From Caldilineales bacterium (GTDB lineage Bacteria > Chloroflexota > Anaerolineae > JAAEKA01): a DNA stretch of 42,216 nt. Location of the stretch: assembly GCA_021463315.1 (NCBI GenBank), contig JAJTXO010000001.1, forward strand, positions 1 to 42,216, written 5' to 3'. The notes beneath the pieces were generated by a model, which saw nothing but the letters and a program-made list of their open reading frames with translations, ran no database searches and was not told the DNA's origin. A program made the position numbers and the translations under genes. Below are positions 5,959-33,760 of the stretch, piece by piece (within the stretch, counting starts at the first letter, position 1; the number at the start of each line of letters is the position of its first letter).

Positions 5959-8907
5959 CTAAAACGCAAAGATATCTCTGCAGCGCGCCTCAAGATCGTT
6001 ATAGTAGTCGCCATCTTCCATCAATGGTCGCAAGACCTCTAATGCCTTTTTGGCGATCCCGGCCGTTTCTGGTGGAGAATCGCTTGTCTGGCCGTCAATG
6101 ATGTCGGCCAGTTGGGAAAGCAGTGTACTGGCTCGCCTGGTTCTGATACCTTCAAGGTGGCGTTCACATTGTGCGATGCATCTCCTTTGGGCTCCTTGAC
6201 GAGCACGCCTCTTGGCTTCCATCAAAAGATCCTGAGCTTTGACGAATTCGTCGACACTGGCCAGGCGACTGATCTCTTTGCACTTGGCTCGAATTGGATC
6301 CTGGTGGTCAAGGGCAGCACATTGTATTTCTAGATCCCTCTCAGTAGTGCCCGTTTTCTCAGACTCGACAACAGCTTTGTGAAGCCGGCCAAGCGACTCG
6401 CCCATTCCTTGTAGGGCATGCATGATCTCAGTGAAGGAGTCTTGGAAGTTCGCGTTCAAGACAAGGGTATCATTGACTGGGCGCGCATCGATTGATTCAT
6501 CGCGCTTCGGAATGACTGCTTCACCCAGAGAGAGGTTAACGTTAGATTCCAGCGGAAAAGCGTAACCTTTTTCGATGACCGCCCCGACAGCTTCAACATA
6601 GCGACGCACATCCTCAGAAACCGATACTTCGCCCAGAATTATGTTACTAACACGAAGTGCAAGGCTGGCGTCGTTTGCGCGCCACGCCGACTCTAGCGCC
6701 GCCAGTATCAATCGGGCGGTCAATCGAGTCTGATGGATGGCCAAGTCGGAATACCATGAGTTCAAGGTGTCATTTGACAGATCAGCCATGTCAAACAACT
6801 CCACGCCCAATCGTTCAGCTTCAGCAAGAACAGCAACTGGTGGCACACCTGCATCAAGTGCAGCCTGATACTGGGTGCGAAGCCGAAATTGAGCCGCGGC
6901 AAGCCCACGCAGTTCATCGCGATACCGTGAGGCTGTTTGATAGAGACTGTTGAATTCCTCTTCATTGCCGGAGAATTCCATCCAGCGGCGCGCTGGATCA
7001 AGGGAGGCCAGAAACGTATCCAAGCACCGCATGTGCTCGCCTATTCGTTGCGGCGTTCTGGGAGGCCCATCGCCTCGAATCTCGGCATACTTGGCTTCCC
7101 AAATCGCAATAGCCTTGGGAGCTACTTGCTGCAAGCACATCTTTACGTCTGGATCCTTCGGCCAATACGCCACCAGCCATCCTCCAGCCGGCCCAACCGG
7201 ATCACCATCGAGGTGTGACATCACCATCTTTTGCCAGCGCTTATCCTGCGCCAACCCCCACCGGTCGTGCGCAGAGGCTGCTCGCAATGCTGACAGTGCT
7301 TCCAGCGCCAACCAGGCAGCGCCTTGGTCCATGTGTTCCAGGTTTGCCGCCACACCCGCTGCGACCGCATTCGATCTGAGCTGGACGCGTCTAAGCGCAC
7401 GATGGTATTGGCTGCGCTTCGGGTCCTGCCTGTCCATCAATCGAAGAACTGCGTTCCATTTGTCTTGCGCCACTTCGAACTTCTTGGCTTTGAATGCGGC
7501 TCTTGCCTCGTTGACAGCCCTGCGCACCAGATCGGCGCGATCGATTTTCTGTCTCGCTTGCCACAGGCCCACCACGGGATCCCCGATCTGAGACTCGATC
7601 ATGGCTCGATAGCCCGCTGGCAACACTTCAATATCGCTCACTGCCTGCTCGAAGAGGTCAACAGACGATGGCGGATCTTCCAGCAGCCCTTTGACAGCGT
7701 CTTCCATCCCAAGGCTGACGCGCAAATCCACCTCCAGCAACTCTAGACGGCCAGAGGGTTGGTCTTCTCCCCACTCGGCTAGCACTCTCTGCAGCTGCTG
7801 CAAGGCTGCCTTGAGGTGACCGCGATCGACCAAGGCGAGCGCCTCCAGCAACGCTGCAGCGAGCCTATCTTGCCCGCCGGAGGCATCTGGCGTCTGCGCC
7901 GGCGACAATCGCCACAGCGTATCGGTCACCGTCCACCAACGCCATGCTCGCAATCGTTCGTGCGCCGCTATCCCAGTCCTCTCTGCCAGTTGCAGGAACT
8001 TATCCACCGTCGGATGATAGGATCCAATTCTGACATCATGTGTTAGCCTATTGAAATGCTTGGCTAAGGTTTCACGAGTTCGCAGGAGACGGAAGGAGCC
8101 GACGCTGTCCGGCTCGCGCCGCGCCGCAATATCGAACAAGGCCTGGGCGGCAGGGAACTGCTCACCGGCAAGAAGATCCAAGCCTTCGCTCAGAAGCTCT
8201 TCGACAGGCCGGCTCCAATTTCTGAAGATGGCTTCCAGCTTGGTGTGGGTGCTCTCGGCAGTCGCTGTGCCTTGAGCATCGAGCAGGATCGACGAAAGCA
8301 CCGTGCGCGTCCCCAGGCTCACCCGCTGCCACGCCGGCCACGTTGTCTCTGGCGTCAGGGGTGGGAAGACAGGCGGCACGGCGCCGGTCAGCAACTCAAC
8401 CCACAATGCCGCCGCTGCCTGAAGATCATCGTGTTGGCTCTCATCGTTTTCCCGCACCCACTCCCAGCCATAAATGATCCATTTCTTGTTCGCGACGTCC
8501 CAGAGCAGCTCATCGAACCCCGGCTGCAGGCCGCTAAAGCCGGCCTGGTGCAGCGCGGCAAGCAGCTTGGTCTGCTGAGAAGCGATTTCGAGGACCTTGA
8601 CTTCCGTGGCGTCATCAGGCCATCCCAGAGCCAGAGAAGCGCCGCGCACGCCGAGCGCCAACAGAGCGCCGTCATCAGGCGTTTCCTGGTAATCGACAAG
8701 CGACGGGCAGCCGGCAAAGGGCAGACCATCCTGGCGCAGGGCAAGCAGCGCCTTGTGCGCCGCCTCCAGCGAGGCCGCGCCATAGGGCGCAGGAGGAGCG
8801 ACCAACACGATCGCCGGCTGGTCGGTGCTGGTGCGCGCCTCATAGCGGGCGATCAGGCCGGCGCTGCCGACCAGTTTGGGGCTGTGAATTGAGCTGGGGA
8901 ATTCCAT
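5959..8907 (-). CDS. Degenerate kinase-fold (pseudokinase-like) N-domain fused to about 700 aa of helical (TPR-like) repeats (982 aa)
   Basis: The N-terminal 250 aa align by eye with the kinase-fold protein at 15220..16260 (LHQAGFSG..FDELLW..IIYGWEWV vs LHAAGYTASDRKIDDIYW..IVLDWNVV; WVELLTGAVPP vs WYEFLVGHAPS; PAWQRVSLGTRTVL vs PEWQKLSRGTQSIL). It lacks the VAVK lysine and the D-x-K catalytic loop. The rest is helix-rich and has no TM. Confidence 0.7.
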   Translation of the reverse strand: MEFPSSIHSPKLVGSAGLIARYEARTSTDQPAIVLVAPPAPYGAASLEAAHKALLALRQDGLPFAGCPSLVDYQETPDDGALLALGVRGASLALGWPDDATEVKVLEIASQQTKLLAALHQAGFSGLQPGFDELLWDVANKKWIIYGWEWVRENDESQHDDLQAAAALWVELLTGAVPPVFPPLTPETTWPAWQRVSLGTRTVLSSILLDAQGTATAESTHTKLEAIFRNWSRPVEELLSEGLDLLAGEQFPAAQALFDIAARREPDSVGSFRLLRTRETLAKHFNRLTHDVRIGSYHPTVDKFLQLAERTGIAAHERLRAWRWWTVTDTLWRLSPAQTPDASGGQDRLAAALLEALALVDRGHLKAALQQLQRVLAEWGEDQPSGRLELLEVDLRVSLGMEDAVKGLLEDPPSSVDLFEQAVSDIEVLPAGYRAMIESQIGDPVVGLWQARQKIDRADLVRRAVNEARAAFKAKKFEVAQDKWNAVLRLMDRQDPKRSQYHRALRRVQLRSNAVAAGVAANLEHMDQGAAWLALEALSALRAASAHDRWGLAQDKRWQKMVMSHLDGDPVGPAGGWLVAYWPKDPDVKMCLQQVAPKAIAIWEAKYAEIRGDGPPRTPQRIGEHMRCLDTFLASLDPARRWMEFSGNEEEFNSLYQTASRYRDELRGLAAAQFRLRTQYQAALDAGVPPVAVLAEAERLGVELFDMADLSNDTLNSWYSDLAIHQTRLTARLILAALESAWRANDASLALRVSNIILGEVSVSEDVRRYVEAVGAVIEKGYAFPLESNVNLSLGEAVIPKRDESIDARPVNDTLVLNANFQDSFTEIMHALQGMGESLGRLHKAVVESEKTGTTERDLEIQCAALDHQDPIRAKCKEISRLASVDEFVKAQDLLMEAKRRARQGAQRRCIAQCERHLEGIRTRRASTLLSQLADIIDGQTSDSPPETAGIAKKALEVLRPLMEDGDYYNDLEARCRDIFAF

Positions 8908-9007
8908 TGCGATGTTGCGTCCATGTTGGCGGTAGTTGTCGTCGGTGAGGGCGAAGCCAATAACCTTCTAAGCCAGTTCGAGCGTCCCTACGGACGCGGG
9001 TTACGGT

Positions 9008-10825
9008 CTACTTGATGTTATCGCGCTTGACCCAAGCGTCGATAACTGCCAACTTCCAGGTGCTCTGCCCGAAAGTGGTCTCGTCCGCCTTTTCTGTTTC
9101 CGTCAATGATCGTGCAAAGGAGATCGCTGGGGTAATCTGAGCCAATGTGCCGCAGTATTTATCGCCGTCATCTTCGGGCGACTTGTCTGGTTGGTAGACA
9201 CATACATCGACCGTACTGCTTGGATTCGTTAGTGTTTGGTTCGGCTCAGTTCCGGTAACGTTGTCGACAGGAACCCAGAGAACTACCCGCACTGACAGGA
9301 AGTCGGAGGCTGGTGTATCCTCGAGGAGCTCAACTGTGACGTCCGTAGGTAGTTCAGCAAGAACCTTCTGACCTGAATCATCTCCGAACAGAGGGACATT
9401 AGCTTCATCACTTGTATCGCCGCCTGATAAGCGCAGTTGTACTTGGCTGGTGCTTGAATCTTCGTCCGAGGATGATGTTGAGGCGTCGATAGTATCAGTC
9501 GCAGCGTCTCGAGCTACGTCCTCAACTTTGGCATCTAAAGGTTCGATGCTAATGGCCCCATCGCTGCCCTCTAACCAAGCCTTACTACCTCCCGAATCTC
9601 TGACCAGGTAGCATGGAATTCCCGCCTCATCGGTGCCGTACTCGTTGTAGCAAGGATGCGTTCCCAAGATCACAAAGCTACTGCCGCTCTTTTCTGCTGT
9701 CTGACTCACCCACTTGTCTTTTGCCATGACAGGTTCTGTGCGCAAATGCAGATCCTTAAGGGTTGTCGCCACCGGCAGAACTCGTACTTGAATGAATTGA
9801 GTAGCAGCTACCGAAGCACCGCTTACCTGCAGGGTATCATCCCCCTGGTTCTGAGAGGCGACCAGTTCGAGGGATGCCATGCCTTTTTCATCAGTGGTTA
9901 CGGTAGTACTACTGTTGCCGTCAAATGAAACAAATCCATTAACTGCGGCGATGTTTACCTCAGTGTTGGGTGCTGCTTCACCTTGTTGACGAGTGTCAAG
10001 GGTTATGGTCAAAGCCTGCCCAACTCCAATCTCAATCGTAGTGGAGTATCGCGGCGTCCAACCTACGGTTACATCAACGGGTTCTGGCGCCGGAGTTGGT
10101 GTTTCTGGCGTCGGCGAAGGTGTCACTTCCGGAGTTGGCGTTTGGGTCGGAGTCTGCTCCTGGGCCATGCCGCCGGGGCCAAAAGCAGGCATCTGGTGGC
10201 TCGCTTCGTCGTTCTGCATGGTGACACTTAGCGTCGCAGGCGGTGCTCCTGTTGCCGCGATATACAAGGCGGTCAACACGCCGTTGCGCACGATCGCTGT
10301 CCGGGGCGTGATGTCGCCAGACGTGACCGAGAAGTGCATTTCCAGGCCATCAGGCGCAGGGTTGCCGTCCTTGCCAATGATATGCACGGTGACGATGGCC
10401 TGGGTAGGGTCGCCTAATGCCGGCTGAACTTCACGCGTCTCGATGGAGAAGAGCCAGTGGCCAGTCGGTTGCTCTGCAATGGCTACCGGCGCAGGGGTTG
10501 CCGTCGGCGTCGGCGTCGGTTCAGGAGCGGGCAACACTGTTTGCATCAGCAGATAGCTGCCAATGAGCGATAGCAGTAGCAAAGCCACCGCGGTGATGCC
10601 GCCAAAGAGCAGCCCCTTCTTCTTGACCGAATTCCGCAGGTTGTCGATCTCCTCGTCGGTCTGAATGCGGGAGATGCGATCGTTGACTTCGGCTTCGATA
10701 GCGTCCAGGGACATGCCAGCCTCAACCAGTTGGTCCACGCTGGCTGCGTAGTCCTCGGGCTTGCTCTGGCTATGCATGGCGTATGCGATTTCGTCCAGGA
10801 TACGACGGCGTTCTCTTTCCTTCAC
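9008..10825 (-). CDS. Type-II membrane protein with two Big_1-like Ig domains, PT-rich linkers and acidic C-terminal region (605 aa)
   Basis: GTG start with GAGGAG 7 nt upstream. TM GLLFGGITAVALLLLSLIGSYLL. Invasin/intimin-like Ig patterns AIVTVHIIGKDGNPAPDGLEMHFSVTSGDITP and TEVNIAAVNGFVSFDGNSSTTVTTDEKGMASLELVAS. Linkers PEPTPTPTATPAP and TPTQTPTPEVTPSPTPETPTPAPEP. Confidence 0.75.
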   Translation of the reverse strand: MKERERRRILDEIAYAMHSQSKPEDYAASVDQLVEAGMSLDAIEAEVNDRISRIQTDEEIDNLRNSVKKKGLLFGGITAVALLLLSLIGSYLLMQTVLPAPEPTPTPTATPAPVAIAEQPTGHWLFSIETREVQPALGDPTQAIVTVHIIGKDGNPAPDGLEMHFSVTSGDITPRTAIVRNGVLTALYIAATGAPPATLSVTMQNDEASHQMPAFGPGGMAQEQTPTQTPTPEVTPSPTPETPTPAPEPVDVTVGWTPRYSTTIEIGVGQALTITLDTRQQGEAAPNTEVNIAAVNGFVSFDGNSSTTVTTDEKGMASLELVASQNQGDDTLQVSGASVAATQFIQVRVLPVATTLKDLHLRTEPVMAKDKWVSQTAEKSGSSFVILGTHPCYNEYGTDEAGIPCYLVRDSGGSKAWLEGSDGAISIEPLDAKVEDVARDAATDTIDASTSSSDEDSSTSQVQLRLSGGDTSDEANVPLFGDDSGQKVLAELPTDVTVELLEDTPASDFLSVRVVLWVPVDNVTGTEPNQTLTNPSSTVDVCVYQPDKSPEDDGDKYCGTLAQITPAISFARSLTETEKADETTFGQSTWKLAVIDAWVKRDNIK

Positions 10826-10896
10826 AGCACAACTCCTCGGTCTGGGTTCCGCCTTTTCAGGTGTTCAGTTTGGCAGGCACTGAATAGTTGCCACTA

Positions 10897-12354
10897 CTAT
10901 TCACGCTCTGCTTTAGTCTGCAGGCCGATTTTGCCTTTGCAGATGTCGTCGATGTAGCGACGCTTCATGCCTTGAGCAGGCCCGGCAGGTTGCGGCAACT
11001 TTGGAGACAGCTCGGAGGCTCCGTCAATGGCCTTCCTTTTGAGGTCATTCGGGACTTCGCTGAGATCGCTGGGGATTTTACGCCGGACTTCTTCAATCGA
11101 CTCCAACGCGTCATACATCTGTTGAGGCTCAGATTGAATGGCTCTGTCCATCATCTCGATCAGCCTTTGGAGGGCAATCTCCGGTTCTGAAGGTTGTTTG
11201 GCTTTGTCGAGACGGGTCCCAAGTTCCTTCAATTGTTGCGACCAGCGGTCTTTGTCGTCGCAGAGTGGAACGGCAAGGGCCATTCCACTCAGGACTTCCG
11301 CTGCCTTATCATAAGCCTTCTCGGCCATGAACTGCTCGAATTGCCGATTGTGCTCTTCCAAGCTGCCTGTTGCATTTGACCTCAATTGGTTCCAGGCAGT
11401 GTCGATCTGTTTGAGAAGATCTTTGTCCGAGTTCTGCACCAGGCCTTGCGCTTCACGCAAGGCTGATGATCTTTTTTCAAGTCCCAATCCCGTGGCTGTT
11501 GCCCGCTCCAGCAAGTGCTGAACTCGTATTTCAATTACCTTGTTGGCGACTGACATCTCATGGCGATGCCAAAAATCATCAAGTAAGTCATCAGGAATCG
11601 GGAAGTGCGTTGGTGACAAAGGCAGTAACTGCCGAATGCTGCTGAGCGCTGCTTCTCGGTCTTCAAGGAACTTGGCATCACGCCAGTCACTGGCCAGTTG
11701 CGCAACCTCCTGACGAGTGTGTTGAGTCTGAAGATCGTGAACGGCCCGAAGCATGTCCTGGTTGCATTTCTCCAGCTCATCTCTTGCGGTCTGCTGTTCC
11801 GGAGGTGGTTCTTCTATTTCCTTGACGATTTCGACAACCTCTGCCCAGAGCTTGTGAGCTTTTAGAAGCGGAAGAGCTCGCACGAACGGAAAGTCACGCG
11901 CCTGCTCTGCCAGCGCCATGTGCTCGCGAGCTCTAGCTTCTCGCTCGCCGACAAGCCCTTGGCGTACGTTTGCCTGAACGGTTCTGGATTCTTCGGCCAT
12001 CGCTCTAAGCTGATTGATCTTACTGTCTTCATTGGCGAGAGCCTCATCCTGGCTCCAGGCATCCAGCTTTCCCGCCAGAGGCACAATTTCGCGGTAGTCA
12101 TCATCGCTGTTGCGCTGTGCGATCTGGCTGATTTGATCTCGGACCTTGGTAGCAAGCTTCAGCCACTTAGCCAACAGATACTCCCTTATGGCCTGAAGCT
12201 CCTCGCTGACGGCCGAGGCCTCTTGCAGACCAGTCTTCGGGTGTAGCTCGATCTGTTCGTTGATTTCCTGCAGCCCCTTTCTGATCTCCAAGACGATTTC
12301 GTCCAATCGAGCTTCCGCAGAATTCTTGATTATTGGCGCAGAAGTTATCGTCAT
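10897..12354 (-). CDS. Coiled-coil/helical cytoplasmic protein, unknown function (485 aa)
   Basis: I place the start at the ATG at 12352-12354 (MTITSAPII...). It lies 5 nt after the upstream stop with GGAGAG about 9 nt upstream; the longer ORF-track start would overlap the upstream gene by 124 nt. Charged, heptad-like composition. No TM. Confidence 0.7.
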   Translation of the reverse strand: MTITSAPIIKNSAEARLDEIVLEIRKGLQEINEQIELHPKTGLQEASAVSEELQAIREYLLAKWLKLATKVRDQISQIAQRNSDDDYREIVPLAGKLDAWSQDEALANEDSKINQLRAMAEESRTVQANVRQGLVGEREARAREHMALAEQARDFPFVRALPLLKAHKLWAEVVEIVKEIEEPPPEQQTARDELEKCNQDMLRAVHDLQTQHTRQEVAQLASDWRDAKFLEDREAALSSIRQLLPLSPTHFPIPDDLLDDFWHRHEMSVANKVIEIRVQHLLERATATGLGLEKRSSALREAQGLVQNSDKDLLKQIDTAWNQLRSNATGSLEEHNRQFEQFMAEKAYDKAAEVLSGMALAVPLCDDKDRWSQQLKELGTRLDKAKQPSEPEIALQRLIEMMDRAIQSEPQQMYDALESIEEVRRKIPSDLSEVPNDLKRKAIDGASELSPKLPQPAGPAQGMKRRYIDDICKGKIGLQTKAERE

Positions 12355-12359
12355 AGCAT

Positions 12360-15227: not shown

Positions 15228-16260
15228 GAGTCACCCCCAGTGCGACAAATCTATCTACCAGAGCACGGAAGTTGTCGAGACGCTCGCTTTGCTTCTCCGT
15301 ATCCAGCGCCTTGATCTTCGCATCCATTTCATCGGCCTTGTATCCGCGGCGTCGAACCATGTCCAGGAAGGCAATCGAAAACTGCTCGGCAGCGCTTCCC
15401 TCGATCCGCGAAACTAACTCGGCGGATGGCGCCTGCCATAGACCTAGCTGCTCCATTAGGTCTTTTTTGAGCGCCTCAGCGGACTGGTATTGCTTCTGCG
15501 GCACCGGGTGCAGCGAGCGTTCCAGAATCGACTGCGTACCTCGACTAAGCTTCTGCCATTCTGGTCGAGCGTCCAGGCGGACAACACGCTCGTTGCCCAC
15601 GTTGACATAGCTTGGCGCATGGCCGACCAGGAACTCGTACCAGAAGCTGCCAAAGCGCAAGAAATCGTTGGCAATGCCTGTCGTGCCGCGACCCACCACA
15701 TTCCAGTCCAAGACGATCAGCGGGCCAGCGTCGCCATTGCGCCAATAGATATCGTCGATCTTGCGGTCGCTGGCTGTGTAGCCAGCCGCATGCAGTACCT
15801 GCAACATCTCGGCATACTGGATGGCAGTCCTCAAGCCGAATGACTCTTCCAGCACGTGCTTTGGTTGAGCGACAGCCAGATCGATGAGCTTGTTTACCTG
15901 GACTAACTCCATGATCACCATCGAGTAACTGTTGCCGTCGCTTGTCGGGTACTCGGGCACGAACCTGAGGGGCTCAGGAAAGTAGGACACGGCAAAATTC
16001 TCGACATCTCCCTGCTGCGCCAGGCGCTGTGCGGTGGCGCGCAGCGTTTCGAGAGTATTGAACTCGCTGCGGAAGCTCTCTGCCATGGTCTCGTCCAGAT
16101 CATGGCTTGCGATCTTGACGGCAACTGCGCTGTTGTCGGGCAACTCGCCGCGGAAGACCTGTGAGAGCCGGCCGCTGCCAAGTCGCGCTGCCAGCCTTAC
16201 CTGGCCGAAGCCATCCAAGATGAAGGTGCGTCCTTCCAAGTTAGCCGGTGATGTCGCCAT
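15220..16260 (-). CDS. Hanks-type protein kinase-fold protein, possibly active atypical Ser/Thr kinase (346 aa)
   Basis: Gly-rich loop LGSGRLSQVF. VAVK lysine (K49, codon 16114-16116). Catalytic-loop-like SDRKIDDIYW (D165/K167). DWN in place of DFG (aa 185-187). The start is 6 nt after the stop of the 1831-aa gene. Confidence 0.8.
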   Translation of the reverse strand: MATSPANLEGRTFILDGFGQVRLAARLGSGRLSQVFRGELPDNSAVAVKIASHDLDETMAESFRSEFNTLETLRATAQRLAQQGDVENFAVSYFPEPLRFVPEYPTSDGNSYSMVIMELVQVNKLIDLAVAQPKHVLEESFGLRTAIQYAEMLQVLHAAGYTASDRKIDDIYWRNGDAGPLIVLDWNVVGRGTTGIANDFLRFGSFWYEFLVGHAPSYVNVGNERVVRLDARPEWQKLSRGTQSILERSLHPVPQKQYQSAEALKKDLMEQLGLWQAPSAELVSRIEGSAAEQFSIAFLDMVRRRGYKADEMDAKIKALDTEKQSERLDNFRALVDRFVALGVTHG

Positions 16261-16266
16261 GGCGGC

Positions 16267-21762: not shown

Positions 21763-21850
21763 ATAGCTATCTCCGTCTCTGGCTCGCTGATCCTGGACTG
21801 CATAGATAGTTCCAGACTGGTCTTCACGCTAGGCCTTCGGGGTTCAACTT

Positions 21851-21880: not shown

Positions 21881-21887
21881 AGCAAAC

Positions 21888-25428: not shown

Positions 25429-28347
25429 TTACCAATTGATCGAGCTCGGCGCGCCGCCGCCTCGTTTGTCCGTGTAGGTCAGGAAGAACCCTGGGTTGAG
25501 CGGCGCACGAGCGCCGTTGGTCAGGTCGCGCACCAAAGGAGCCCCCTTGGTCTTGGTCACTTTCACCTTGACGCCGTTCTTGGTTCCGGTGACGCGCACT
25601 GATTTCACGCCAGCCAATGGCGCATTGGGGGTCCATTTCAGAGTGTGAACGCCGCGGCCGTCCAAATTGATCGGCGCTCCAAGCGTCCGTTCATTGCTGT
25701 CGATGATCGTCAACACGCCCGTCGCCTTCTGCTTGAAAAAGTGGTTGCTAGCAAAAGACCATCCGACAAACAGCAAGCACCCAAGGATGAGCGCAAACAC
25801 GGCATAGGTCACCGGCAGCAAGCGGTTTGGAATGCGCACCACGCTGAGCGATTGTGGTTGTTCGTCCCAGATGTAGGCTGGCTTGAGCGGCGCATTGCCC
25901 ACCACATTGATCAGATAGGTGTCGCGACCGGTCAGCCCATCGCCGAAGGCCCGCCACCGACCGGTTTCGCCGGCCGGTTCGATGGTAACTTCGCCGCTGC
26001 GATCTTGCCCCTGGCTGTCGCTGATCGACACCGTGAACGGTGGCCTCGCCGGATCCGTCAATGCCAGAGCCGGATCGATGGGCTGGCCGTCGCCAAGTAG
26101 CTCCACGCGGACATCCAGCGGGTTCTTGAGGAAAGGCAGGATGCCGTTGTACGCCAGCTTGTCTCCATTCTTGGGCGAGACGACCGCCAACGACAGTAGT
26201 GTGGTCGGCGTGACCTGGAATGTTCCCACCTGGTCATCGAAGACGATGCGAGGAGAATCGCCGGTAGTGTTGAAGCGTGCTGTGACGTCTACAGAGCCCG
26301 ACTTCTGAGGGCGAACGGTGGCCGTCCACATTCCGTCGCCCTGAGACTGAAGCGCGTGGGCGCCCTCTTCTGCCCCCGTCAATATGATCTCACCTGCCAA
26401 GGTTGGGGCTGGATTGGCGCCAGTCACAGGCCTGCCATTGCGATCCACGAGTTGCAGTTGAACATCAACGGCGCCGTACTGCGGCTGAGGATCATCCAAT
26501 CCGACCAATTGCACTGCCAGCGGCGCCACGGTGAGCGTACCTAGAGACTGATCAAGCGCACCAGAGCCAGCGCCCGATCCAGCTTGGTTAGTAGTAAGGG
26601 CAATGGGGTGGTCGCCAGGTTCCAACGAAACGACTGAGGCAAGCAACGAACCGTCTTGCTGGGCCTGCAACGGAAACGTCAGCCTGCCTTGGGATTCATC
26701 TAGAGCGAGATATAGTTGACTGCCCAGGGTCGTAAAGACCTCGGGTGCCACCCGTCTGCCCTGATCGTCGGTGATCTCGATCTTGACCTCAGAAGGGACC
26801 AGCACCGTGGTGGCGGGGGCTTCTACGAGCCGCGGGCGCGTGGTGCTGACCGTGAATTCGCCTTTGTCCTCGTTCAACAACTCAATGGGGTTGCCGTTGG
26901 GATCCTGAGTTGTGGCGGTGATACCGATGCGATACGTACCTGGCTCGGCTGGCGTGAACGGCGCCGTGTAGATGCCTTGTTCGTCTTGAACGAGTGGGAT
27001 TACCGCTTCACCCGAAGGCTGAGTGATCCGGGCTTCGACATCAAGACGATACTTGGGATCAGCATAACGGGGCAAGGCCGAACCGGCATAGCCACTGAGT
27101 TTTAGTTGAATGGGTGCTGGCACGTACTGCAACTGCTGTCCTGTGGGACTCAGCAGTTGGGCCACCATTTGCACTTCCTCACGGTAGATTTTCGGGTCTA
27201 GTCTGGCGTCAGGTGGACAAACGATGTCCCAGAAACCAGGCTCAGGATTGGGGATCTTGATGGTTTCGATGACCGAGTTCGATCCTGTGACTGTAGCTTT
27301 GCTGGGATCATCCAGATTCAGGTCGACATTGTTCACCCGGAGGCCGATCCGATCCTGGGAATTGACCTTGTGAACGTTGAACCTGATCAACTGAAGGTAG
27401 GGTGGAATGACCTGGGGACCACATTCAGCAGGAAAACCACCGGGTCCCATACCCATATCTCGCCGCAATTCCTCAAGGTACTGCTGAAGCGTTGCACCAG
27501 CCTGTTCATTTCTTTCGACCAATTGCGCGTTGTTGCTGGTGACTTGGTTCCAGTACCGCACCACTGGGCCCCATTGATCCCGATCGCTGTCATTCATACC
27601 GACAATAAAAATACGATACTCAGGGTAGGGGAAGTTGTCACGAACATAGGGTATCAGATCTGCCATGTAGCGATCCAAAGGAATCGGCGTCCGGGGTGTC
27701 GGCGTCGCGGTTGCCCCATCCGAGGACGGAGGGGGCGACTGGACCGTGGTTTCGACGGGTGGCAGGACATAAGGTATACCATCTGTCAGCATGATGATAG
27801 CGCGCAGCCGATTACCCGGCAGACCCTCAGCATCCATAGCGTCGAAGATTTGCCTCGCATGCTCGAATGCCAGCAGTTGATTGGTATTGCCCAGGTTGCG
27901 CTGACCGAAGCTCTCGGCGCTCACTTGTTGCTGTAATTCATCAAGCTTGGGACCCCATTCCTGATCGGACCTGGGATCGATGGTTATTATCGGCGGATCA
28001 AGACGCGACTCCACTGTGTCGCCAAAGTCCAGCAAAGCCACACGGAAATCATTCTCCAGATCCAGACCATAGGTTAGGCTGGCGCTTCCCAGCCAGTCCA
28101 TAATGAACTTGGCTGCCTCGAAACGCAATTCGTTGCTGTCGTTGACTGCGGGATGATCGGAGCTGCCATAGTTGAGCCCACCCATCGAGCCGCTTTGGTC
28201 CACGAGAATTACCAAGTCCAAGCCATCGTAGGGACGCTCGCCGCTCTGCCCAAGGACAGCAGCAGGCATGACCAACGCGGCAATGAGCACTAGAACCACA
28301 AGTATCAGTGAGATACCATGCTGAATGTGGCGGAAAGCATGATGCAT
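25429..28347 (-). CDS. Extracytoplasmic vWA-domain protein with multiple Ig-like beta-sandwich repeats, C-terminal TM anchor and about 110-aa cytoplasmic tail (972 aa)
   Basis: Signal anchor ISLILVVLVLIAALVMPAAVL. MIDAS DQSGS (28186-28200) in DLVILVDQSGSMGG. IIMLTDGIP strand. Repeated beta-rich modules. TM VTYAVFALILGCLLFVGWSF near the C-terminus. AGGAGG lies 10 nt upstream of the ATG. Confidence 0.85.
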   Translation of the reverse strand: MHHAFRHIQHGISLILVVLVLIAALVMPAAVLGQSGERPYDGLDLVILVDQSGSMGGLNYGSSDHPAVNDSNELRFEAAKFIMDWLGSASLTYGLDLENDFRVALLDFGDTVESRLDPPIITIDPRSDQEWGPKLDELQQQVSAESFGQRNLGNTNQLLAFEHARQIFDAMDAEGLPGNRLRAIIMLTDGIPYVLPPVETTVQSPPPSSDGATATPTPRTPIPLDRYMADLIPYVRDNFPYPEYRIFIVGMNDSDRDQWGPVVRYWNQVTSNNAQLVERNEQAGATLQQYLEELRRDMGMGPGGFPAECGPQVIPPYLQLIRFNVHKVNSQDRIGLRVNNVDLNLDDPSKATVTGSNSVIETIKIPNPEPGFWDIVCPPDARLDPKIYREEVQMVAQLLSPTGQQLQYVPAPIQLKLSGYAGSALPRYADPKYRLDVEARITQPSGEAVIPLVQDEQGIYTAPFTPAEPGTYRIGITATTQDPNGNPIELLNEDKGEFTVSTTRPRLVEAPATTVLVPSEVKIEITDDQGRRVAPEVFTTLGSQLYLALDESQGRLTFPLQAQQDGSLLASVVSLEPGDHPIALTTNQAGSGAGSGALDQSLGTLTVAPLAVQLVGLDDPQPQYGAVDVQLQLVDRNGRPVTGANPAPTLAGEIILTGAEEGAHALQSQGDGMWTATVRPQKSGSVDVTARFNTTGDSPRIVFDDQVGTFQVTPTTLLSLAVVSPKNGDKLAYNGILPFLKNPLDVRVELLGDGQPIDPALALTDPARPPFTVSISDSQGQDRSGEVTIEPAGETGRWRAFGDGLTGRDTYLINVVGNAPLKPAYIWDEQPQSLSVVRIPNRLLPVTYAVFALILGCLLFVGWSFASNHFFKQKATGVLTIIDSNERTLGAPINLDGRGVHTLKWTPNAPLAGVKSVRVTGTKNGVKVKVTKTKGAPLVRDLTNGARAPLNPGFFLTYTDKRGGGAPSSINW

Positions 28348-28370: not shown

Positions 28371-29282
28371 CTACTTCCCTAGGACAAGACGATCGGCAAG
28401 AAACTTCGGATAGCCGCTGTCAAGCATCAGATCCTGAACTGAGGCGATATCATAAGGAATCCGCCGAAATGAGACATGCAAGTGATCTTGATCAAGAGCG
28501 AGTATGACATAAGAAGCCCGGGCATCATGGTCGCGTGGCTGACCAATGCTGCCAGGACAAAGCACAATCCGCTGGCTGTCAAGCTCAGTGAGTTCGATGA
28601 TCACCTCACTGCGTTCCGTGATAGCGCCGTTCTTGGGCGACCGTGACTCGTTCCAAGTGTTGCCATCGGCGCGATGCATAAGCGTTGGGACATGGGTATG
28701 ACCCACTACAAGCAGACGGGTCACATCAGCGCCCAGATAACGGTCAATGTTTCGGAAAGCACTGTTGGCTTGGATCGAGTCACGCAAGTAGGAAGCCTCA
28801 CCTTTAACATTCACCATGCTATCTGGACCTTCTATGACAGTGCCATGAGCAATCACCACGCCAGACACTGGCGCCGACCAAGTCGGCGCTGCTGCCATCC
28901 GTTGATACCAGCTTCGCTCCTCATAGCCCGCCAACTCCCAGGCCTGAATCTGCAGGGCATCGGCTGAACCCATGTTGCCAATCAAATCCCTGAGATCATC
29001 CGGCGTATCGTCAGCCTTGCAGCTCATGTTGCCGCGCAAGCAGTGGACGAGGCCCAGGTCGTGGTTTCCGGCCAGCCATGGCTCACCTTCGCCAAGCAGA
29101 TCGTCCAAGCGCTGCAAGCATTGCCTTGGCTGCGGACCATAGCCAACGGCATCGCCGAGAAACCAACAGGCATCGATCCGCTGCGAAGCAACCTGGCATG
29201 TTGCCTGGATGTCGTCAAGAACCGCCTCCAAGGCAACTAAGTTGGCGTGGACGTCCGACAGCAATGCTACTCGCATGATCAT
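28371..29282 (-). CDS. Calcineurin-like metallophosphoesterase (303 aa)
   Basis: Motifs in order: LLSDVHAN (D-x-H), FLGDAVGYG (GD), AGNHD (GNHD/E), VIAHG, VVGHTHVP (GH-x-H), PGSIGQPRD. I place the start at the ATG at 29280-29282, which overlaps the upstream stop (ATGA). The ATG at 29276 is an alternative. The ORF-track N-extension lies inside the upstream gene. Confidence 0.85.
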   Translation of the reverse strand: MIMRVALLSDVHANLVALEAVLDDIQATCQVASQRIDACWFLGDAVGYGPQPRQCLQRLDDLLGEGEPWLAGNHDLGLVHCLRGNMSCKADDTPDDLRDLIGNMGSADALQIQAWELAGYEERSWYQRMAAAPTWSAPVSGVVIAHGTVIEGPDSMVNVKGEASYLRDSIQANSAFRNIDRYLGADVTRLLVVGHTHVPTLMHRADGNTWNESRSPKNGAITERSEVIIELTELDSQRIVLCPGSIGQPRDHDARASYVILALDQDHLHVSFRRIPYDIASVQDLMLDSGYPKFLADRLVLGK

Positions 29283-32200
29283 CTCCCGGAACAGTTTTCT
29301 TGCGCCGCGGGCATGATGCCATCCCAGCCTTGGTATTGGGGAGCAATCTTTTTGGCGGCGCCAATCAACTGGTTCAACTCGGCACACAGATCTCGACGCT
29401 GTTGTGAGTTTGGACCCTTAAAACCGAACTTTTTCTTGCGCAACTCATCGAGAGTTGCGCCTATTGCCTCCAAATAGCTGTAGAAGTTCGCCTCATCTCT
29501 GGGCAGAAGTTCCAATAACGGGAGCGTGTCATCCGAGCGAGGTCCTTCTAACAGTTCGATATCACGTTGGGCAGATCCCAAGGCCTCCTGGCGCGCGGTA
29601 AAAATCTGTTGAACTCGCTTGCTCAAGGCCACCTTCGGATCCGCGACAGCCAGGAAAGGGCTGCCGGTGGAGTCCCGTGGATCAAGCAGGTAGCGCTGAC
29701 ACCGTCTCAGAGACCATCTGTTATCCAAGCTGGCAACCTCACTGCTATCGGTACCTAGAGCATCCTGGATGATTTTCTTCGCCTCACCGAACATTCCCTG
29801 CTGCCAGCGATTGCGACAGACGGGTTCCCCATGCTGTCTCCAGCCTAACCGTTTGCAGTCCGGCGGGATCGGGGACTCTGAGCGCCAGCCCTGTAAACCC
29901 ATTGGCTTTTGCCACAGGTCTACCAACTGCCATTGTGCGAGCCGCGTTTCTGTCAAGCCTTTGACGTTGTCGCTTGTTGACTTTCCAACAAGAGGAAGAT
30001 TATCATCCAACCAGGGATCATAGATGCGCACGTTGCGAATGACTTCGAACTGGCCATCTGCATCCAGCTTCTCAATCTCCTGGGTCAATTTCACGATTAC
30101 TTCAAAGTTCTCATCATGCACCGCCTGCTGCAAGCGCTTGAGGGTCGTTGCGATTTCGGCGCGACTTCTTTGCGCCTCAGCCAATTCCTTTTTCAGCGCC
30201 TCGACAGTGATGTGCTGGCTGAAAGGCAAGTCCAACGCGTTGATATCGCCCAGGACATCTTTTATTCGCTCGAAGGGGTCATCATCGCCGTTGGGTTGAG
30301 AGCCGAAGGATTGCTGCCCACGGCTCGGCGGCACCCATTCGCCCGATGAGAACGCCTTGCCCCGAGCGCCGCGCAGGCGCGCCCGCCCTTGCTGCACCAG
30401 CCGCTCCAAATGCTTCAGATCCTTGATCCTGCGATTGATCTTCTCCACACAGGCCTTGGCGCTCTGCTGGCCCTCAGCTTGCCCAAGGCTCAGCGCCTGT
30501 TGATCCAATAACGCGCTGATGTCAAAGGCCCGACTTTGCAGTTGTTCGGCATGTTCGATCTGAATTTGCAGCGATCGGTGTGGTTCAACTGATTTGAGAC
30601 GACCGTCTGCATCCGGAATCTCGCTGGGGCCTGTAAAATCCTCCATAAGCGCTTCAGTGTCGATCTCCAATTGCCGCACGCTGGCGCCTGCACGACTGAT
30701 CTCGGTGCGTGCTTCGGGCGCCTGTGGATCCAATGTCATGATCTTGACAGCCAGGGCCCATCTGCCTGGATCGCTGTCAGGCAGTTCCTTCATCCGAGCC
30801 GAGAGTCGCCGGATCAAATCTTGTTTGCAGTCAGAAAACCATCGATCAATCTCCAAGGCTTTGTCAGGCTGTCTCTGACGAAGATCGCTCACGGCTTTGC
30901 TTGCGGACCTATACTGAACGGCGTGATTGTCCTCACGTAGCGCAGCCTGCACGATGATCTGGGTATCGTGAATATCCTTCAGCTTCTCGGTCGTTGCGCG
31001 CAGTTGATCGATGCTCGGTTGGTTAGCGCCACTCTGCGCCTGATCATAGCCTTGCGCCGTATCCAGATACTGAAGCGCTTCATCATAGCGGTCTCGGTCT
31101 ACAGACAATCGAGCCAACTCCAGCCATGCCTCTGCGTCGTCCTGATACTCGAGAACGAACTTCAGCCAGACGCTTTGCGCATCGGCTAAGCCCTGATCTC
31201 TCTGTTCCTTTTGCCTGTTGCGATTGGTGCTGGCTTGCTGCCTGGTCCGATCACGCGCTATGGAACGGCGTTTCTGCTGCAGGTCGTCGTCGTTGGGGGT
31301 AAGCTGAATGGCCTTATCCATCAGTTCCTTGGCCGTCTCGAGCGATGGCCCCCCTGCCTTCCGAGCGATAGCTGCTGCGCGCGCGTAGATGCCCGGCATG
31401 TTCTTCTGTTGCCACTCCTCCCCTGCGACCGGCGCCAACCGCTTCAAGTCGTCCAATCGCTGCTCGATCTGCTCCAACGGGGCCACCTTGGGGTTGTTCT
31501 TGATGGCGTTCAACTGTCCTTCCAGCCGTTTCTGCCAGGCGCGCTCATAAATATGGGCCTGCGCCCGAATCTTCACACCAAGTTCGCCCGGCTGATCGAA
31601 CCATGGCTTGAGCAATTCGATTGCCTTGCCAAAGTCCTGCACTGCCGCGGCTCGCGCTGCGTCCTCCAAGGAACGAGTGGCCTGATCGGTCTTCGATTTG
31701 GCGTTTTGTATTTCATCTCGGTATTCCTGAGCGCTCGCCGCATCCTCGGCCTTCCTCGTGACAAGTTCCTGCAGAATAGGTTCGGCCTCATCGCGGAAAC
31801 CGCCTCCCATATTGAAGAGCCGTTGAGCGATCAAGAACTGGCGTCTCAAATCCAACCGTTCGCGCGTGTCCTTTAGATCGTCAGGTTCGCCGACTTGCTG
31901 TTGCAGACGACGCAGCCGCTCTATCCGCTGCTCCAACTCGACTTGAGTCAGGCTGCGGTAGCCTTCCTCGATTTCCTGCAACGCGGCGCGCAGATCCTTG
32001 CGCGCCCGAATGCTGTCCTGCCAACCAGCAAGAACCGGAAAGAAACTGGCGAGATCTCCCACCGATCGTTGGATCGAACGCAGCCGTTCTTCGGCGCGTG
32101 CAGGTTCGCTCTCGATCAGGCGTTCCATCTCATCGGCTTGCGCGCTAATCTCGCGCCCCAACGTCTGTAGACGAGTAGCGCGCTGCACCAAACTGTCAGC

Positions 32201-33760
32201 CTGGTCATGGAGAAGCCGTTGGTTCAGGTCATCTGTCTGCAAAAGGTCTCGCAGGTTAGCCGCCTGCTTTTCAGCCTCTTCCCAGCGACCTGCGATCAAG
32301 TCCTCTCGGCATCTGACCAGCGCGTTCTGCATTCTTGAGGCCACCGATGGCCATAGCCGCGCCTTGGCAGCTTCAACACTCTTCGCTGCCGGGTCTAGCC
32401 TGGCAGCCGAAAGCAACGAATTCCAGCCAGCAATCGGGTCATCAAAGAGGGATGCTTCTGACGCCGCCTTGTCGACCCGATCGCGCGTCTGGACACGCGG
32501 TTCGACTTCCGTTCGGAATTCTCGCAGGTTGCGCTTTTCACTATCCGGTAGATGTGGAAACTGTTCTGCGATTGAGATGACTTCTAGGGCATAACTAGGA
32601 TCAGAAGGGATGGCTTGCTCCGCTTCCGCCCGATATCGCCTTGCCTTTGTGGTGCTGAACTTCCCGATTTCCTGATTGAGTATGTCCAACGCAGCATCCG
32701 CTGGTGCGTAACCCGTCTGCCTCACGACCGGTTTAAGCTTCCCATCCTCAACTAGCTCCCGGATTTCATACAATGGCAATTCAGCAGCGCCTTGCGCTTT
32801 CCTGTCGCGTAGATCTGCCTCAACCTTAAGAAACTCCTCCAAGCTGAGACCGGTAAGCCACACCTGTTCTTTTTGAGCGGCTGTGGTCTCTTGCTGAATT
32901 GCATAGTCTACAAAATCCTTCAGCCTACTGACGTGTGGGTATCTGCTGGCAGCCCGCTCAGCCTCTTGCCTCGCCAGCCTCGCGTCTTTCAGAAGACCGC
33001 TAGACCACAGTCTCAGTAGTTCATCCTCAACGCGTTTGATTTCGGTTTCGATCTCCTGCTGTTGTTTCGAGAGGTTGACCTTCCTGCGCAGGTCAATCAA
33101 CGCGGGGAGTTCAGGATCCACCTGATCGAATTTTGCAACCAGAGCATCTGCTTCTCTGAAGTCATTCCTCTCAATGCTTGTCTTGAGTTGCTCGAGCAAG
33201 ATCCCCGCAAGATCCTTTTGGCGGCGCAGGATATCATCCCGTTTGCTCTGCACCTCCACCTTGCGCCCGCGTCGGGCGCTGTCAACCGCCTGCTGCGCAA
33301 CAGCTAGCGCATCAGCAAATCGCTCTTGTGTCGCCAGATCCAAAGCCTCGGCTAGAAACGCGCTGGTACGTGAGTCTATCTCTGCGATCTCTGTCTCTTT
33401 ACGTTCTAGTTTGATGGTGGCGATCAACTCCTCAATGGCATGAAGCTGACGCGCACCGCGGGCAAACGCTCTCGCATCTTCGAGGCTCTCCAGGGCGTTA
33501 TCCCAGTCCCACCGCCCATGTGCTGTTTCGGCCTGGCTGAACAACGCTCGATAGGTTGGGTCTTCATCCTCAAAAGGCTCATCGGATACCACAGCGGAAC
33601 GAGACGACTCGCGCAGAAGTTGTCGCACCTCTGCTGCTTCTTGCGACAACTGGTCGTATTCTTGCTCGAAGCCAGGAATCACTGTGCCTGACGGTGCAAA
33701 CTGGCTGATTTCAGTTTCCAGATCAAGGAGCCTTTGTTGAAGCTCATCGATGGTAGCCAT
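29279..33760 (-). CDS. Giant helical (coiled-coil/TPR-like) cytoplasmic protein, first gene of the array (1493 aa)
   Basis: Start placed at the ATG at 33758-33760 (MATIDELQQRLLDLE...) with GGAG 8 nt upstream. Charged helix-prone sequence throughout. TPR-like stretches (e.g. DAEAWLELARLSVDRDRYDEALQYLDTAQGYD). No TM. Confidence 0.75.
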   Translation of the reverse strand: MATIDELQQRLLDLETEISQFAPSGTVIPGFEQEYDQLSQEAAEVRQLLRESSRSAVVSDEPFEDEDPTYRALFSQAETAHGRWDWDNALESLEDARAFARGARQLHAIEELIATIKLERKETEIAEIDSRTSAFLAEALDLATQERFADALAVAQQAVDSARRGRKVEVQSKRDDILRRQKDLAGILLEQLKTSIERNDFREADALVAKFDQVDPELPALIDLRRKVNLSKQQQEIETEIKRVEDELLRLWSSGLLKDARLARQEAERAASRYPHVSRLKDFVDYAIQQETTAAQKEQVWLTGLSLEEFLKVEADLRDRKAQGAAELPLYEIRELVEDGKLKPVVRQTGYAPADAALDILNQEIGKFSTTKARRYRAEAEQAIPSDPSYALEVISIAEQFPHLPDSEKRNLREFRTEVEPRVQTRDRVDKAASEASLFDDPIAGWNSLLSAARLDPAAKSVEAAKARLWPSVASRMQNALVRCREDLIAGRWEEAEKQAANLRDLLQTDDLNQRLLHDQADSLVQRATRLQTLGREISAQADEMERLIESEPARAEERLRSIQRSVGDLASFFPVLAGWQDSIRARKDLRAALQEIEEGYRSLTQVELEQRIERLRRLQQQVGEPDDLKDTRERLDLRRQFLIAQRLFNMGGGFRDEAEPILQELVTRKAEDAASAQEYRDEIQNAKSKTDQATRSLEDAARAAAVQDFGKAIELLKPWFDQPGELGVKIRAQAHIYERAWQKRLEGQLNAIKNNPKVAPLEQIEQRLDDLKRLAPVAGEEWQQKNMPGIYARAAAIARKAGGPSLETAKELMDKAIQLTPNDDDLQQKRRSIARDRTRQQASTNRNRQKEQRDQGLADAQSVWLKFVLEYQDDAEAWLELARLSVDRDRYDEALQYLDTAQGYDQAQSGANQPSIDQLRATTEKLKDIHDTQIIVQAALREDNHAVQYRSASKAVSDLRQRQPDKALEIDRWFSDCKQDLIRRLSARMKELPDSDPGRWALAVKIMTLDPQAPEARTEISRAGASVRQLEIDTEALMEDFTGPSEIPDADGRLKSVEPHRSLQIQIEHAEQLQSRAFDISALLDQQALSLGQAEGQQSAKACVEKINRRIKDLKHLERLVQQGRARLRGARGKAFSSGEWVPPSRGQQSFGSQPNGDDDPFERIKDVLGDINALDLPFSQHITVEALKKELAEAQRSRAEIATTLKRLQQAVHDENFEVIVKLTQEIEKLDADGQFEVIRNVRIYDPWLDDNLPLVGKSTSDNVKGLTETRLAQWQLVDLWQKPMGLQGWRSESPIPPDCKRLGWRQHGEPVCRNRWQQGMFGEAKKIIQDALGTDSSEVASLDNRWSLRRCQRYLLDPRDSTGSPFLAVADPKVALSKRVQQIFTARQEALGSAQRDIELLEGPRSDDTLPLLELLPRDEANFYSYLEAIGATLDELRKKKFGFKGPNSQQRRDLCAELNQLIGAAKKIAPQYQGWDGIMPAAQENCSGR

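Follow-up and report, generated by a model that had tools for sequence, protein, structure and literature searches.

A Caldilineales gene array with a tubulin-like paralog pair, predicted extracytoplasmic vWA domains and a kinase module belongs to an elaborated FtsZl1 system

The window analysed here is a stretch of 42,216 nucleotides (nt) of a Caldilineales bacterium (contig JAJTXO010000001.1, assembly GCA_021463315.1) whose minus strand carries an array of ten consecutive open reading frames (ORFs) at positions 5959-33760, named g10 to g1 in reading order. We assign this array, with a probability of about 0.9, to an elaborated, mainly Chloroflexota version of the FtsZl1/von Willebrand factor A (vWA)/protein-kinase system. 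The mechanism that we favour, to which we give a probability of 0.4-0.5, is that binding by ectodomains is coupled across the membrane to GTP-dependent assembly of FtsZl1 proteins and tuned by phosphorylation. An initial annotation made from the letters of the window had presented the array as an undescribed system. This holds only in part: genome-based predictions of 2010 and 2020 already cover the general kind, so that the array is largely of a described type. It matches the FtsZl1-vWA-kinase operons of Makarova and Koonin (PMC2875224), work that the annotation cited with the match unrecognised, and the loci of Kaur et al. (PMC7159879). New here are the A-type/D-type pair of FtsZl1 paralogs, the fusion of an FtsZl1 domain to ectodomains across the membrane, a kinase giant accompanied by a pseudokinase, and a calcineurin-type phosphoesterase.

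The ten ORFs, with all junctions, motifs and domain calls first listed for them, were reproduced exactly. With the internal ATG starts implied by that list for g3 (12354), g9 (29282) and g10 (33760), the gaps from g10 to g1 are -4, 23, 64, 125, 6, -8, 5, 71 and 100 nt. The order of the array is far beyond chance, being repeated in dozens of independent loci. These come from a comparison of 80 loci of species-representative genomes and several metagenome contigs (designated by L numbers), whose ORFs were labelled by iterated profiles built from the window proteins. The recurring core, found mostly in Chloroflexota, starts with a membrane protein that has vWA and Ig domains, continues with two Tubulin_2 proteins, the first of them soluble, and ends in a large kinase-like protein. 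A g8-like gene lies directly 5' of the soluble FtsZl1 gene in 39 of the 50 assessable loci (here with a 64-nt gap). The second Tubulin_2 gene is found downstream in 32 of 49 loci, fused N-terminally to vWA in 23 cases and in 10 also to a propeller, and at least 28 of 49 loci have a kinase-like gene still further downstream, within flanks that ended at 10 kb. The co-conservation proposed at the outset as a check of the array is thereby borne out. Beyond the Chloroflexota, the core is found in metagenome-assembled genomes (MAGs) of a Clostridia member (L065) and of Thiohalocapsa (L062), each with a CAP protein, a ~1,150-aa (amino acid) protein, a vWA protein, the soluble paralog and two vWA-Tubulin_2 fusions. 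A closer subclade retains the order g10-g9-g8-g7-g6 even where g7 identity falls to 32% (it is seen at 32-48%), and the entire g10-to-g3 order is found in L086-L088. A homolog search with g7 returned 173 proteins, the named ones almost all from Chloroflexota MAGs. An exhaustive search with the g7-family profile among cluster representatives at 50% identity gave 7,295 at E <=1e-3 and 977 at E <=1e-30. At least 411 stretches were confirmed among 185,579 species genomes, with hosts mostly in the Chloroflexota.

The tubulin-like domains are found in the adjacent g7 and g6. g7 (21888-25364, minus strand) encodes a soluble, A-type FtsZl1/Tubulin_2 protein of 1,158 aa whose residues 5-357 match positions 1-355 of the 356 of Pfam Tubulin_2 (PF13809) with E 2.2e-43 and 149 bits for a cutoff of 27. 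g6 (16267-21762, minus strand) encodes a polytopic protein of 1,831 aa with a D-type FtsZl1 domain, residues 875-1225 matching positions 1-356 of the 356-position model (E 3.2e-30, 106 bits). Pfam Tubulin_2 is the FtsZ-like family of Makarova and Koonin (PMC9871819); neither g7 nor g6 matches Pfam Tubulin (PF00091), FtsZ_C or Tubulin_C. An AlphaFold2 (AF2) model of g7, built on a 98-sequence homolog alignment, has a mean predicted local distance difference test score (pLDDT) of 92.3 and a predicted template modelling score (pTM) of 0.84. It shows an alpha/beta core at 1-400, long helices at 519-700, then a mixed part and helical C-terminal parts. The AF2 model of g6 residues 860-1831 (pLDDT 88.8, pTM 0.90) has the same layout. 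The top 50 Foldseek hits of the g7 model in the PDB are exclusively CetZ, FtsZ, tubulin and TubZ structures (probability 1.0, best E 4e-05), aligned over ~350 columns that span the entire FtsZ core with template modelling (TM) scores of ~0.43-0.48 on the target. Those of the g6 model are exclusively CetZ, FtsZ and TubZ (probability 1.0, best E 2e-05). A Foldseek search of viral models gave one phage tubulin and coiled-coil noise. Profile and predicted fold thus place both proteins in the tubulin/FtsZ superfamily and not in a Rossmann oxidoreductase fold, the alternative that had been named at the outset.

The initial annotation had taken the two proteins for two tubulin-like GTPases from the motifs GLGGTG and GGTGAG in g7 and GLGGAG and GGGFGSG in g6, all of which are present in the translations. 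The placement of both in the tubulin superfamily stands, while the second belongs to a lineage with a systematically degenerate nucleotide signature. In g7 the T1 and T4 motifs read IIGLGGTGV and SVAGGTGAG, and GLGGTG and AGGTGAG are invariant across its 98 homologs. In g6 T1 is intact (GLGGAG) and T4 reads SLGGGFGSG; since Phe stands in place of Thr, its GGGFGSG is not an intact tubulin signature. An alignment of 128 Tubulin_2 domains extends this asymmetry to the family. The G-box of the soluble first paralog, [AVT]GGTG[AS]G, is intact in almost all orthologs (two variants), whereas that of the downstream paralog is degenerate in nearly every locus, as in GGFGSG, GGLGSG, GGM-SG, DDVGSG, EALGAG or EPx-IG, and the T1 loop of that paralog has frequently decayed as well. 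Of 42 degenerate paralogs, 38 resemble a degenerate paralog from elsewhere more closely than the FtsZl1 protein encoded next to them, which argues for an old duplication and a maintained asymmetry. The cytoplasmic part of g6 aligns with g7 over its whole length, beyond the GTPase domain, making the two full-length paralogs. Both have an additional, conserved C-terminal region of 600-800 aa in which relaxed Pfam scans found nothing credible.

Hydropathy predicts that g6 spans the membrane several times, in the order signal/anchor, vWA outside, transmembrane hairpin 440-493, propeller outside, transmembrane segment 816-834 and Tubulin_2 inside. The hairpin has a basic loop on the cytoplasmic side, and the positively charged loops are cytoplasmic overall. 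Pfam matches VWA at residues 97-239 (8e-08) and the PD40 propeller at ~575-775 (2e-18). g8 (25429-28347, minus strand) is predicted to be bitopic, with a signal/anchor, a vWA domain and Ig-like repeats outside (Pfam VWA_2 and Filamin/Big_1/Invasin_D3 repeats), a transmembrane segment at 843-861 and a 111-aa tail in the cytoplasm. The two metal ion-dependent adhesion sites (MIDAS) first noted in the letters are in place, DVSSS in g6 (residues ~103-107, 21442-21456) and DQSGS in g8 (residues 50-54, 28186-28200), each in a vWA domain predicted outside. The architecture of the g8 family is very uniform: 48 of 51 g8-like proteins keep a MIDAS of the form DxSxS, with a single C-terminal transmembrane segment and a cytoplasmic tail of 100-150 aa whose pattern is weakly conserved. 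A relaxed Pfam scan of the g8 tail found nothing credible and lent no support to a divergent FHA domain there.

The ectodomains of the D-type paralogs vary from locus to locus while the cytoplasmic part is conserved. They combine CAP with two vWA domains, CAP with vWA, PD40 and CarboxypepD_reg, CAP with a DsbA-like thioredoxin domain (in L010) and PD40, or consist of vWA alone. The cytoplasmic part of the L085 protein is 61% identical to that of g6; its ectodomain is unalignable with that of g6 and has a CAP domain and a weak, sub-threshold match to integrin-beta-type vWA. This pattern of D-type FtsZl1 ectodomains would correspond to a receptor-like modularity. The survey was done on the fetched loci since a homolog search with the g6 cytoplasmic part returned 6 proteins. 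The CAP domain (cysteine-rich secretory protein/PR-1) is fused to the D-type ectodomain in L001, L002, L007, L010 and L085, it is encoded by a separate upstream gene in L062 (L062:2924-4090) and L065 (L065:3196-4191), and g6 of the window has none.

g6 is followed by genes of a kinase module. The kinase-fold protein and degenerate paralog of the initial annotation are upheld by the alignment of g5 with g1 orthologs (30% identity over 158 aa, E 8e-13), which supports paralogy. g5 (15220-16260, minus strand) encodes 346 aa with an atypical Hanks-type kinase domain. It scores 23.8 bits with Pfam ABC1 for a cutoff of 22.9, Pkinase remaining below its cutoff, and retains the beta3 Lys (VAVK), the catalytic Asp (SDRK) and the DFG-like Asp (LDWN). 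g1 (5959-8907, minus strand; 982 aa) has all three of these residues replaced and is, as judged from its sequence, a pseudokinase paralogous to the core kinase, the N-terminal kinase-like part being followed by a helical region. It belongs to no Pfam family, relaxed Pfam scans of both halves found nothing credible, and 9 homologs were detected; several other loci have also a second kinase-like gene. The protein encoded by g4 (12360-15227, minus strand; 955 aa, helical) has no Pfam family either. In L084 a single 1,297-aa ORF (L084:2741-6634) aligns with g5 at residues 3-340 and with g4 at residues 346-1262, indicating that g5 and g4 are the N- and C-terminal parts of one kinase giant that underwent fission. 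The split is due to a 1-nt indel that generates the ATGGCTGA stop/start overlap of g5 and g4 at 15220-15227. A sequencing error was considered and rejected, because the independent assembly L083 has the same overlap (L083:2640-6549); the two genes are probably translationally coupled. Kinase giants of other loci are typically unsplit and 1,000-1,600 aa long. They keep the beta3 Lys, catalytic Asp and DFG-like Asp, and in the subclade of g5 the catalytic-loop Asn is changed to Asp.

The genes around this core encode accessory proteins. g9 (28371-29282, minus strand), whose start overlaps the g10 stop by 4 nt, encodes a 303-aa protein for which the original call of a calcineurin-type metallophosphoesterase is corroborated by Pfam (Metallophos_2 1.2e-10, Metallophos 4.4e-09) and by the motifs DVHAN, GDAVGYG, GNHD and GHTH. 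Its nearest solved relatives are 3rqz (2.6e-28), a structural-genomics metallophosphoesterase, SapH 3qfm, an Ap4A hydrolase/phosphodiesterase, and ApaH. Of the 50 loci whose upstream sequence could be assessed, 9 have a gene matching the iterated g9 profile. The array opens with g10 (29279-33760, minus strand), which encodes 1,493 aa rich in helix-favouring residues, with only sub-threshold TPR matches in Pfam. Orthologs of ~1,380-1,600 aa are encoded at this position in L001, L002, L003, L005, L007, L044, L085 and L086, and g10 is, like g9, limited to the closer subclade. g3 (10897-12354, minus strand) encodes a charged protein of 485 aa with helix-favouring composition and no Pfam, NCBIfam or PADLOC match; it is syntenic in L083, L084 and L086-88 at 38-66% identity. 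Three of these genes had been said to encode about 2,900 aa of helical protein devoid of transmembrane segments. g10, g4 and g3 do sum to 2,933 aa and have no hydrophobic segment, which holds by hydropathy also for g1, g5, g7 and g9; the helicity is a matter of composition (53-55% A/L/E/R/Q/K). g2 (9008-10825, minus strand) encodes a 605-aa type-II membrane protein with a 70-aa cytoplasmic N-terminus, a single transmembrane segment at 71-89 and, outside, predicted Ig-like domains with Pro/Thr linkers. This agrees with the Ig-domain surface protein first described, the match to Invasin_D3 (1.9e-05) being below the Pfam cutoff. A relaxed Pfam scan of the N-terminus found nothing credible, and g2 is syntenic in L083 and L084.

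The 3' limit at 5959 was drawn too narrowly. Directly 3' of g1, on the same strand and with gaps of 36, 3 and 22 nt, lie d1 (5083-5922), d2 (3766-5079) and d3 (2760-3743), each coding for a membrane protein with predicted transmembrane segments and no Pfam match. Their order and sizes are conserved in L084 at 71-83% identity, where the whole g6-to-d3 order is kept, and d1 is found also in L083 (27%). Since they are syntenic in the closest relatives, d1-d3 probably belong to the array. The window reaches its GC minimum (0.486, compared to 0.54-0.68 elsewhere) at 4001-6000 in d1-d2, the site of the most variable, distal membrane-protein genes. Identity to the two near relatives is mosaic along 2760-21762. 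The g6C part of g6, g5, g4 and g2 are nearer L083 (93, 84, 73 and 74%) than L084 (86, 65, 53 and 55%), whereas g3, g1 and d1 are nearer L084 (66, 77 and 71%) than L083 (38, 54 and 27%). Such a pattern points to exchange of cassettes, or to recombination, inside the array.

The assignment to the FtsZl1 operons agrees with what the available passages of the 2010 study relate (PMC2875224). A vWA gene is present there in most predicted FtsZl1 operons, its product often with a signal peptide or transmembrane segment and an intact MIDAS. Protein kinases and a divergent P-loop GTPase are often encoded as well, several genomes add OmpA-like proteins, and most remaining genes are lineage-specific, many of them membrane-associated or of low complexity. 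Its supplementary neighbourhood table lists vWA-then-FtsZl1 repeatedly, Cagg_1317/Cagg_1316 being the sole Chloroflexi case, and its authors proposed a kinase-regulated membrane-remodelling machine in the form of a membrane-associated multiprotein complex. The window shares with these operons the vWA gene directly upstream, with signal/transmembrane segment and MIDAS, the Ser/Thr kinase and the lineage-specific accessory genes. It differs in features that the same passages do not describe, namely a second paralog with degenerate G-box, a transmembrane fusion of FtsZl1 to ectodomains, kinase giants and a metallophosphoesterase, and the Chloroflexi example given there has just a vWA and an FtsZl1 gene side by side. 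Among the 10 array and 6 flanking proteins there is no family match to the divergent P-loop GTPase or to OmpA-like proteins, which are frequent but non-defining FtsZl1 partners.

Kaur et al. (2020) placed tubulin-gene loci among conflict systems centred on GAP1-N2 and DO-GTPases that are enriched in multicellular bacteria. In Firmicutes, such loci combine a pair of genes for tubulin-domain proteins that end in coiled coils with a pair of vWA genes, and one of the vWA proteins crosses the membrane several times and has its vWA domain outside (PMC7159879). The present array likewise encodes two proteins in which a tubulin domain is followed by a helical C-terminal region, and two with a vWA domain, of which one is multi-transmembrane and extracellular; occasional kinase/phosphatase modules and the interpretation as a regulated cytoskeleton-like assembly near the membrane are also shared. 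It differs in that the multi-transmembrane extracellular vWA and the second tubulin domain reside in one polypeptide (g6), that the phosphatase of those systems is a PP2C and here a calcineurin-type phosphoesterase, and that the tubulin theme is restricted there to Firmicutes and Actinobacteria. The scanned window proteins have no Pfam match to a DO-GTPase with zinc ribbons, GAP1-N2 or FNIII repeats, assuming that Pfam models for these exist.

Comparison with the TerY-P triad, which had been drawn in the initial annotation, is not sustained. The triad, treated by Anantharaman in 2012 and Gao in 2020, reportedly consists of the TerY vWA protein, a PP2C phosphatase and a Ser/Thr kinase. The array likewise encodes vWA, kinase and phosphoesterase together; it differs by a Metallophos enzyme in place of PP2C, by vWA domains predicted to be extracytoplasmic and by an FtsZl1 core that TerY-P does not have. 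PADLOC gives no match for g6, g8 and g9, generic kinase models for g5 (mad6, PD-T4-6) and one sub-threshold match for g4, and PADLOC and NCBIfam scans of the ten proteins return nothing system-specific, leading us to reject TerY-P and every catalogued defence system. To canonical members of the superfamily (FtsZ, CetZ, TubZ, PhuZ, BtubA/B, tubulin) the array is linked by the predicted fold and by the T1 GxGGxG and T4 GGTGxG motifs of g7, and the adjacent paralogs with unequal nucleotide sites recall alpha/beta-tubulin and BtubA/B by analogy only. It is set apart from them by the lack of PF00091 and PDB sequence matches, the extra C-terminal region, one paralog that is an integral membrane protein, and a context without partition (TubR/tubC) or division genes.

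In the mechanism that we favour, g6 would be a receptor-like membrane anchor, nucleator or cap. As the ectodomains of g6 and g8 (vWA, propeller, Ig) engage in metal-dependent binding, their clustering or conformation would change, and beneath the membrane the pseudo-GTPase FtsZl1 domain of g6 would recruit or template the assembly of soluble g7, a GTP-dependent step. Scaffolding could fall to the helical giants (g10, g4, g3 and the C-terminal region of g1), while the kinase/pseudokinase pair and the phosphoesterase would set and reset the threshold of the switch. Most likely, the switch would act locally to remodel or organise the envelope or the cell surface, with a part in conflict between organisms almost as probable. 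An outside-in device had been proposed for the array from the start. The proposal is reasonable and the predicted layout agrees with it, the coupling itself being an inference; the idea becomes more concrete because g6 directly fuses ectodomains, transmembrane segments and an FtsZ-like domain. A more daring form, which we consider unlikely, makes g6-g7 a receptor-tubulin pair: g6 would be a pseudo-GTPase tubulin receptor that templates or caps g7 polymerisation upon metal-dependent binding of a ligand outside, the two forming an obligate heteropair, independently evolved and functionally like alpha/beta-tubulin, in a kinase-controlled integrin-like switch.

Several points count against the coupled mechanism. 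GTP binding, hydrolysis, polymerisation and the g6-g7 interaction are all inferred, because neither an experiment on FtsZl1 nor a solved structure matching in sequence was found: a literature search found no biochemical, structural or genetic experiment on the family, and a PDB sequence search with the 98-homolog g7 profile found no chain at E <0.1. The Foldseek alignments of both models, over 335-400 columns, have TM scores of 0.43-0.50 on the target, which is moderate, and the alignment behind the g6 model consists mostly of g7-type paralogs. The T7/H7 elements for FtsZ-type polymer-dependent hydrolysis were not identified in FtsZl1, according to Makarova and Koonin (PMC2875224). g9 may act on a nucleotide rather than a phosphoprotein, since it is closest to Ap4A hydrolases/phosphodiesterases. 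Signalling could equally run inside-out, integrin-like, the polymer clustering the adhesins. No output or effector activity is identifiable among the array proteins. Promoter and terminator scans gave counts at or near the shuffle expectation and are therefore of no help with operon boundaries.

What such an assembly would serve can be read in two ways with comparable support. The array may be a housekeeping-like machine for envelope, adhesion or morphogenesis in which FtsZl1, polymerised just beneath the membrane, would work inside-out in the manner of integrins and place or cluster adhesins (vWA, Ig, CAP, propeller) for cohesion, sheath or filament organisation or motility, a possibility that we entertain at odds somewhat below even. 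Its ectodomain repertoire is typical of adhesion and matrix binding, with a conserved MIDAS, the DsbA-like ectodomain of L010 and the long Ig stalk of g8. Ser/Thr kinase control is common in envelope biogenesis, and such a kinase is present here. Membrane remodelling is also what Makarova and Koonin proposed (PMC2875224), and a Methanoculleus operon with vWA and tubulin-like genes, reported to be upregulated on mechanical disturbance of flocs, is a weak lead in the same direction, its tubulin-like gene being only possibly an FtsZl1 (PMC12008871). This role fits less well with the patchy distribution (at least 411 confirmed stretches among 185,579 species genomes), with a strong mosaicism and domain swapping that are atypical of core morphogenesis, and with a window that has no link to peptidoglycan or division genes. 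Alternatively, the array would be a conflict system for immunity or cell suicide whose ectodomains sense an invader or a damaged neighbour, the nucleotide-dependent tubulin-like assembly being a thresholded switch to arrest, sealing-off or death of a cell in a multicellular filament. The class of two-tubulin and two-vWA loci was placed among conflict systems of multicellular bacteria (PMC7159879), most hosts belong to the Chloroflexota, relatives differ by swapped ectodomains, identity to the near relatives L083 and L084 is mosaic, and neighbouring genes encode STAND ATPases, a Phd-type antitoxin (L085), an IS110 transposase (L083) and a WXG100-domain protein. We take this reading, too, as less likely than not and place it slightly below the first. 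Those neighbours are not conserved with the array, ~31 kb is very large for defence and sensing outside the cell is atypical of anti-phage systems. PADLOC finds only generic kinase models for g5 and one sub-threshold match for g4, and no DO-GTPase, GAP1, MoxR, nuclease, pore, protease or NADase is recognised in the 13 array proteins.

It is improbable that the array is not one system at all, only a conserved core of 3-4 genes (vWA, FtsZl1 x2, kinase) with g10, g9, g3, g2, g1 and d1-d3 as co-oriented, lineage-specific passengers. Such passengers would account for the confinement of g9 and g10 to a subclade (9 of 50 loci), for the mere 9 detectable homologs of g1 and for the divergence of g3, g1 and d1, much faster than that of the core, and most accessory genes of FtsZl1 operons are lineage-specific also according to PMC2875224. 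They are harder to reconcile with the tight junctions (-8 to 125 nt), with gene order kept from g10 to g3 in L086-L088, from g6 to d3 in L084 and over g10-g9-g8-g7 down to 32% g7 identity, with the paralogy of g1 to the core kinase, and with array intergenic gaps that hold no terminator-like site on the minus strand.

Within the tubulin superfamily, FtsZl1/Tubulin_2 is a very populous branch, with 7,295 representatives after clustering at 50% identity, and systems of this kind have been predicted rather than characterised. When the 2010 study was reviewed, one referee was puzzled by a cytoplasmic FtsZ-like protein that works with secreted vWA proteins (PMC2875224). The present type of locus answers this topology puzzle directly, because one FtsZl1 paralog is fused through transmembrane helices to vWA/propeller ectodomains and is accompanied by a vWA protein with a conserved cytoplasmic tail. 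The division into a paralog with intact signature and a degenerate, membrane-anchored one provides a specific hypothesis for purified proteins. If the pair polymerises, bacteria would have a new way of coupling the assembly of a cytoskeleton to the membrane; if the array is a conflict system, it would bring a new class of sensor/effector logic in multicellular bacteria.

Three genes upstream of the array, all on the minus strand, were considered as core members and rejected. u1 (34545-35954) encodes a STAND/NB-ARC ATPase according to Pfam, u2 (36149-37072) a C39-like peptidase with an N-terminal transmembrane segment, and u3 (37090-39294) a protein with vWA outside, a transmembrane segment and FHA inside (Pfam, hydropathy). 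They are placed outside the core because none of them is found beside the arrays of L001, L002, L003 and L085 and because the u1-like gene of L086, 52% identical to u1 and upstream of the array, is on the opposite strand; u2 and u3 are likewise missing next to the arrays in the remaining relatives that were examined. STAND/NB-ARC/AAA_16 ATPases of the u1 type recur just upstream of vWA-Tubulin_2 arrays in distant loci, often on the opposite strand, and ORFs matching the iterated u1 profile lie near the arrays of L014, L018, L022 and L026. The ATPase could be a regulator or an independent neighbour. FHA is a phosphothreonine-binding domain and the layout of u3 resembles that of g8; a role of u3 as reader of the kinase output is plausible. 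Among the relatives, L085 (68% g7 identity) has an 80-aa gene of the Phd/YefM antitoxin family (L085:1068-1310) that abuts the start of its g10-like gene with one shared base, and L083 has an IS110 transposase.

Rfam and tRNA scans returned no match. Two long ORFs on the plus strand, at 20596-22152 (518 aa, over g6/g7) and 37198-39117 (639 aa, over u3, no family match), look like shadow ORFs of GC-rich coding sequence. At 1135-1953 (minus strand), 3' of d3 and on the same strand, lies a gene for a sigma factor with sigma-70 region 2, of the extracytoplasmic function (ECF) type. Towards the other end of the window, the ORF at 40903-41988 (minus strand) encodes 361 aa that begin with a WXG100 domain (E 1.9e-10) and continue with a C-terminal stretch of ~270 aa without family match, the layout of type VII-secreted polymorphic toxins. 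The contig ends in a tandem repeat of 106 bp at 42020-42216 (1.9 copies, 98% identical), which may be the reason why the assembly stops there.

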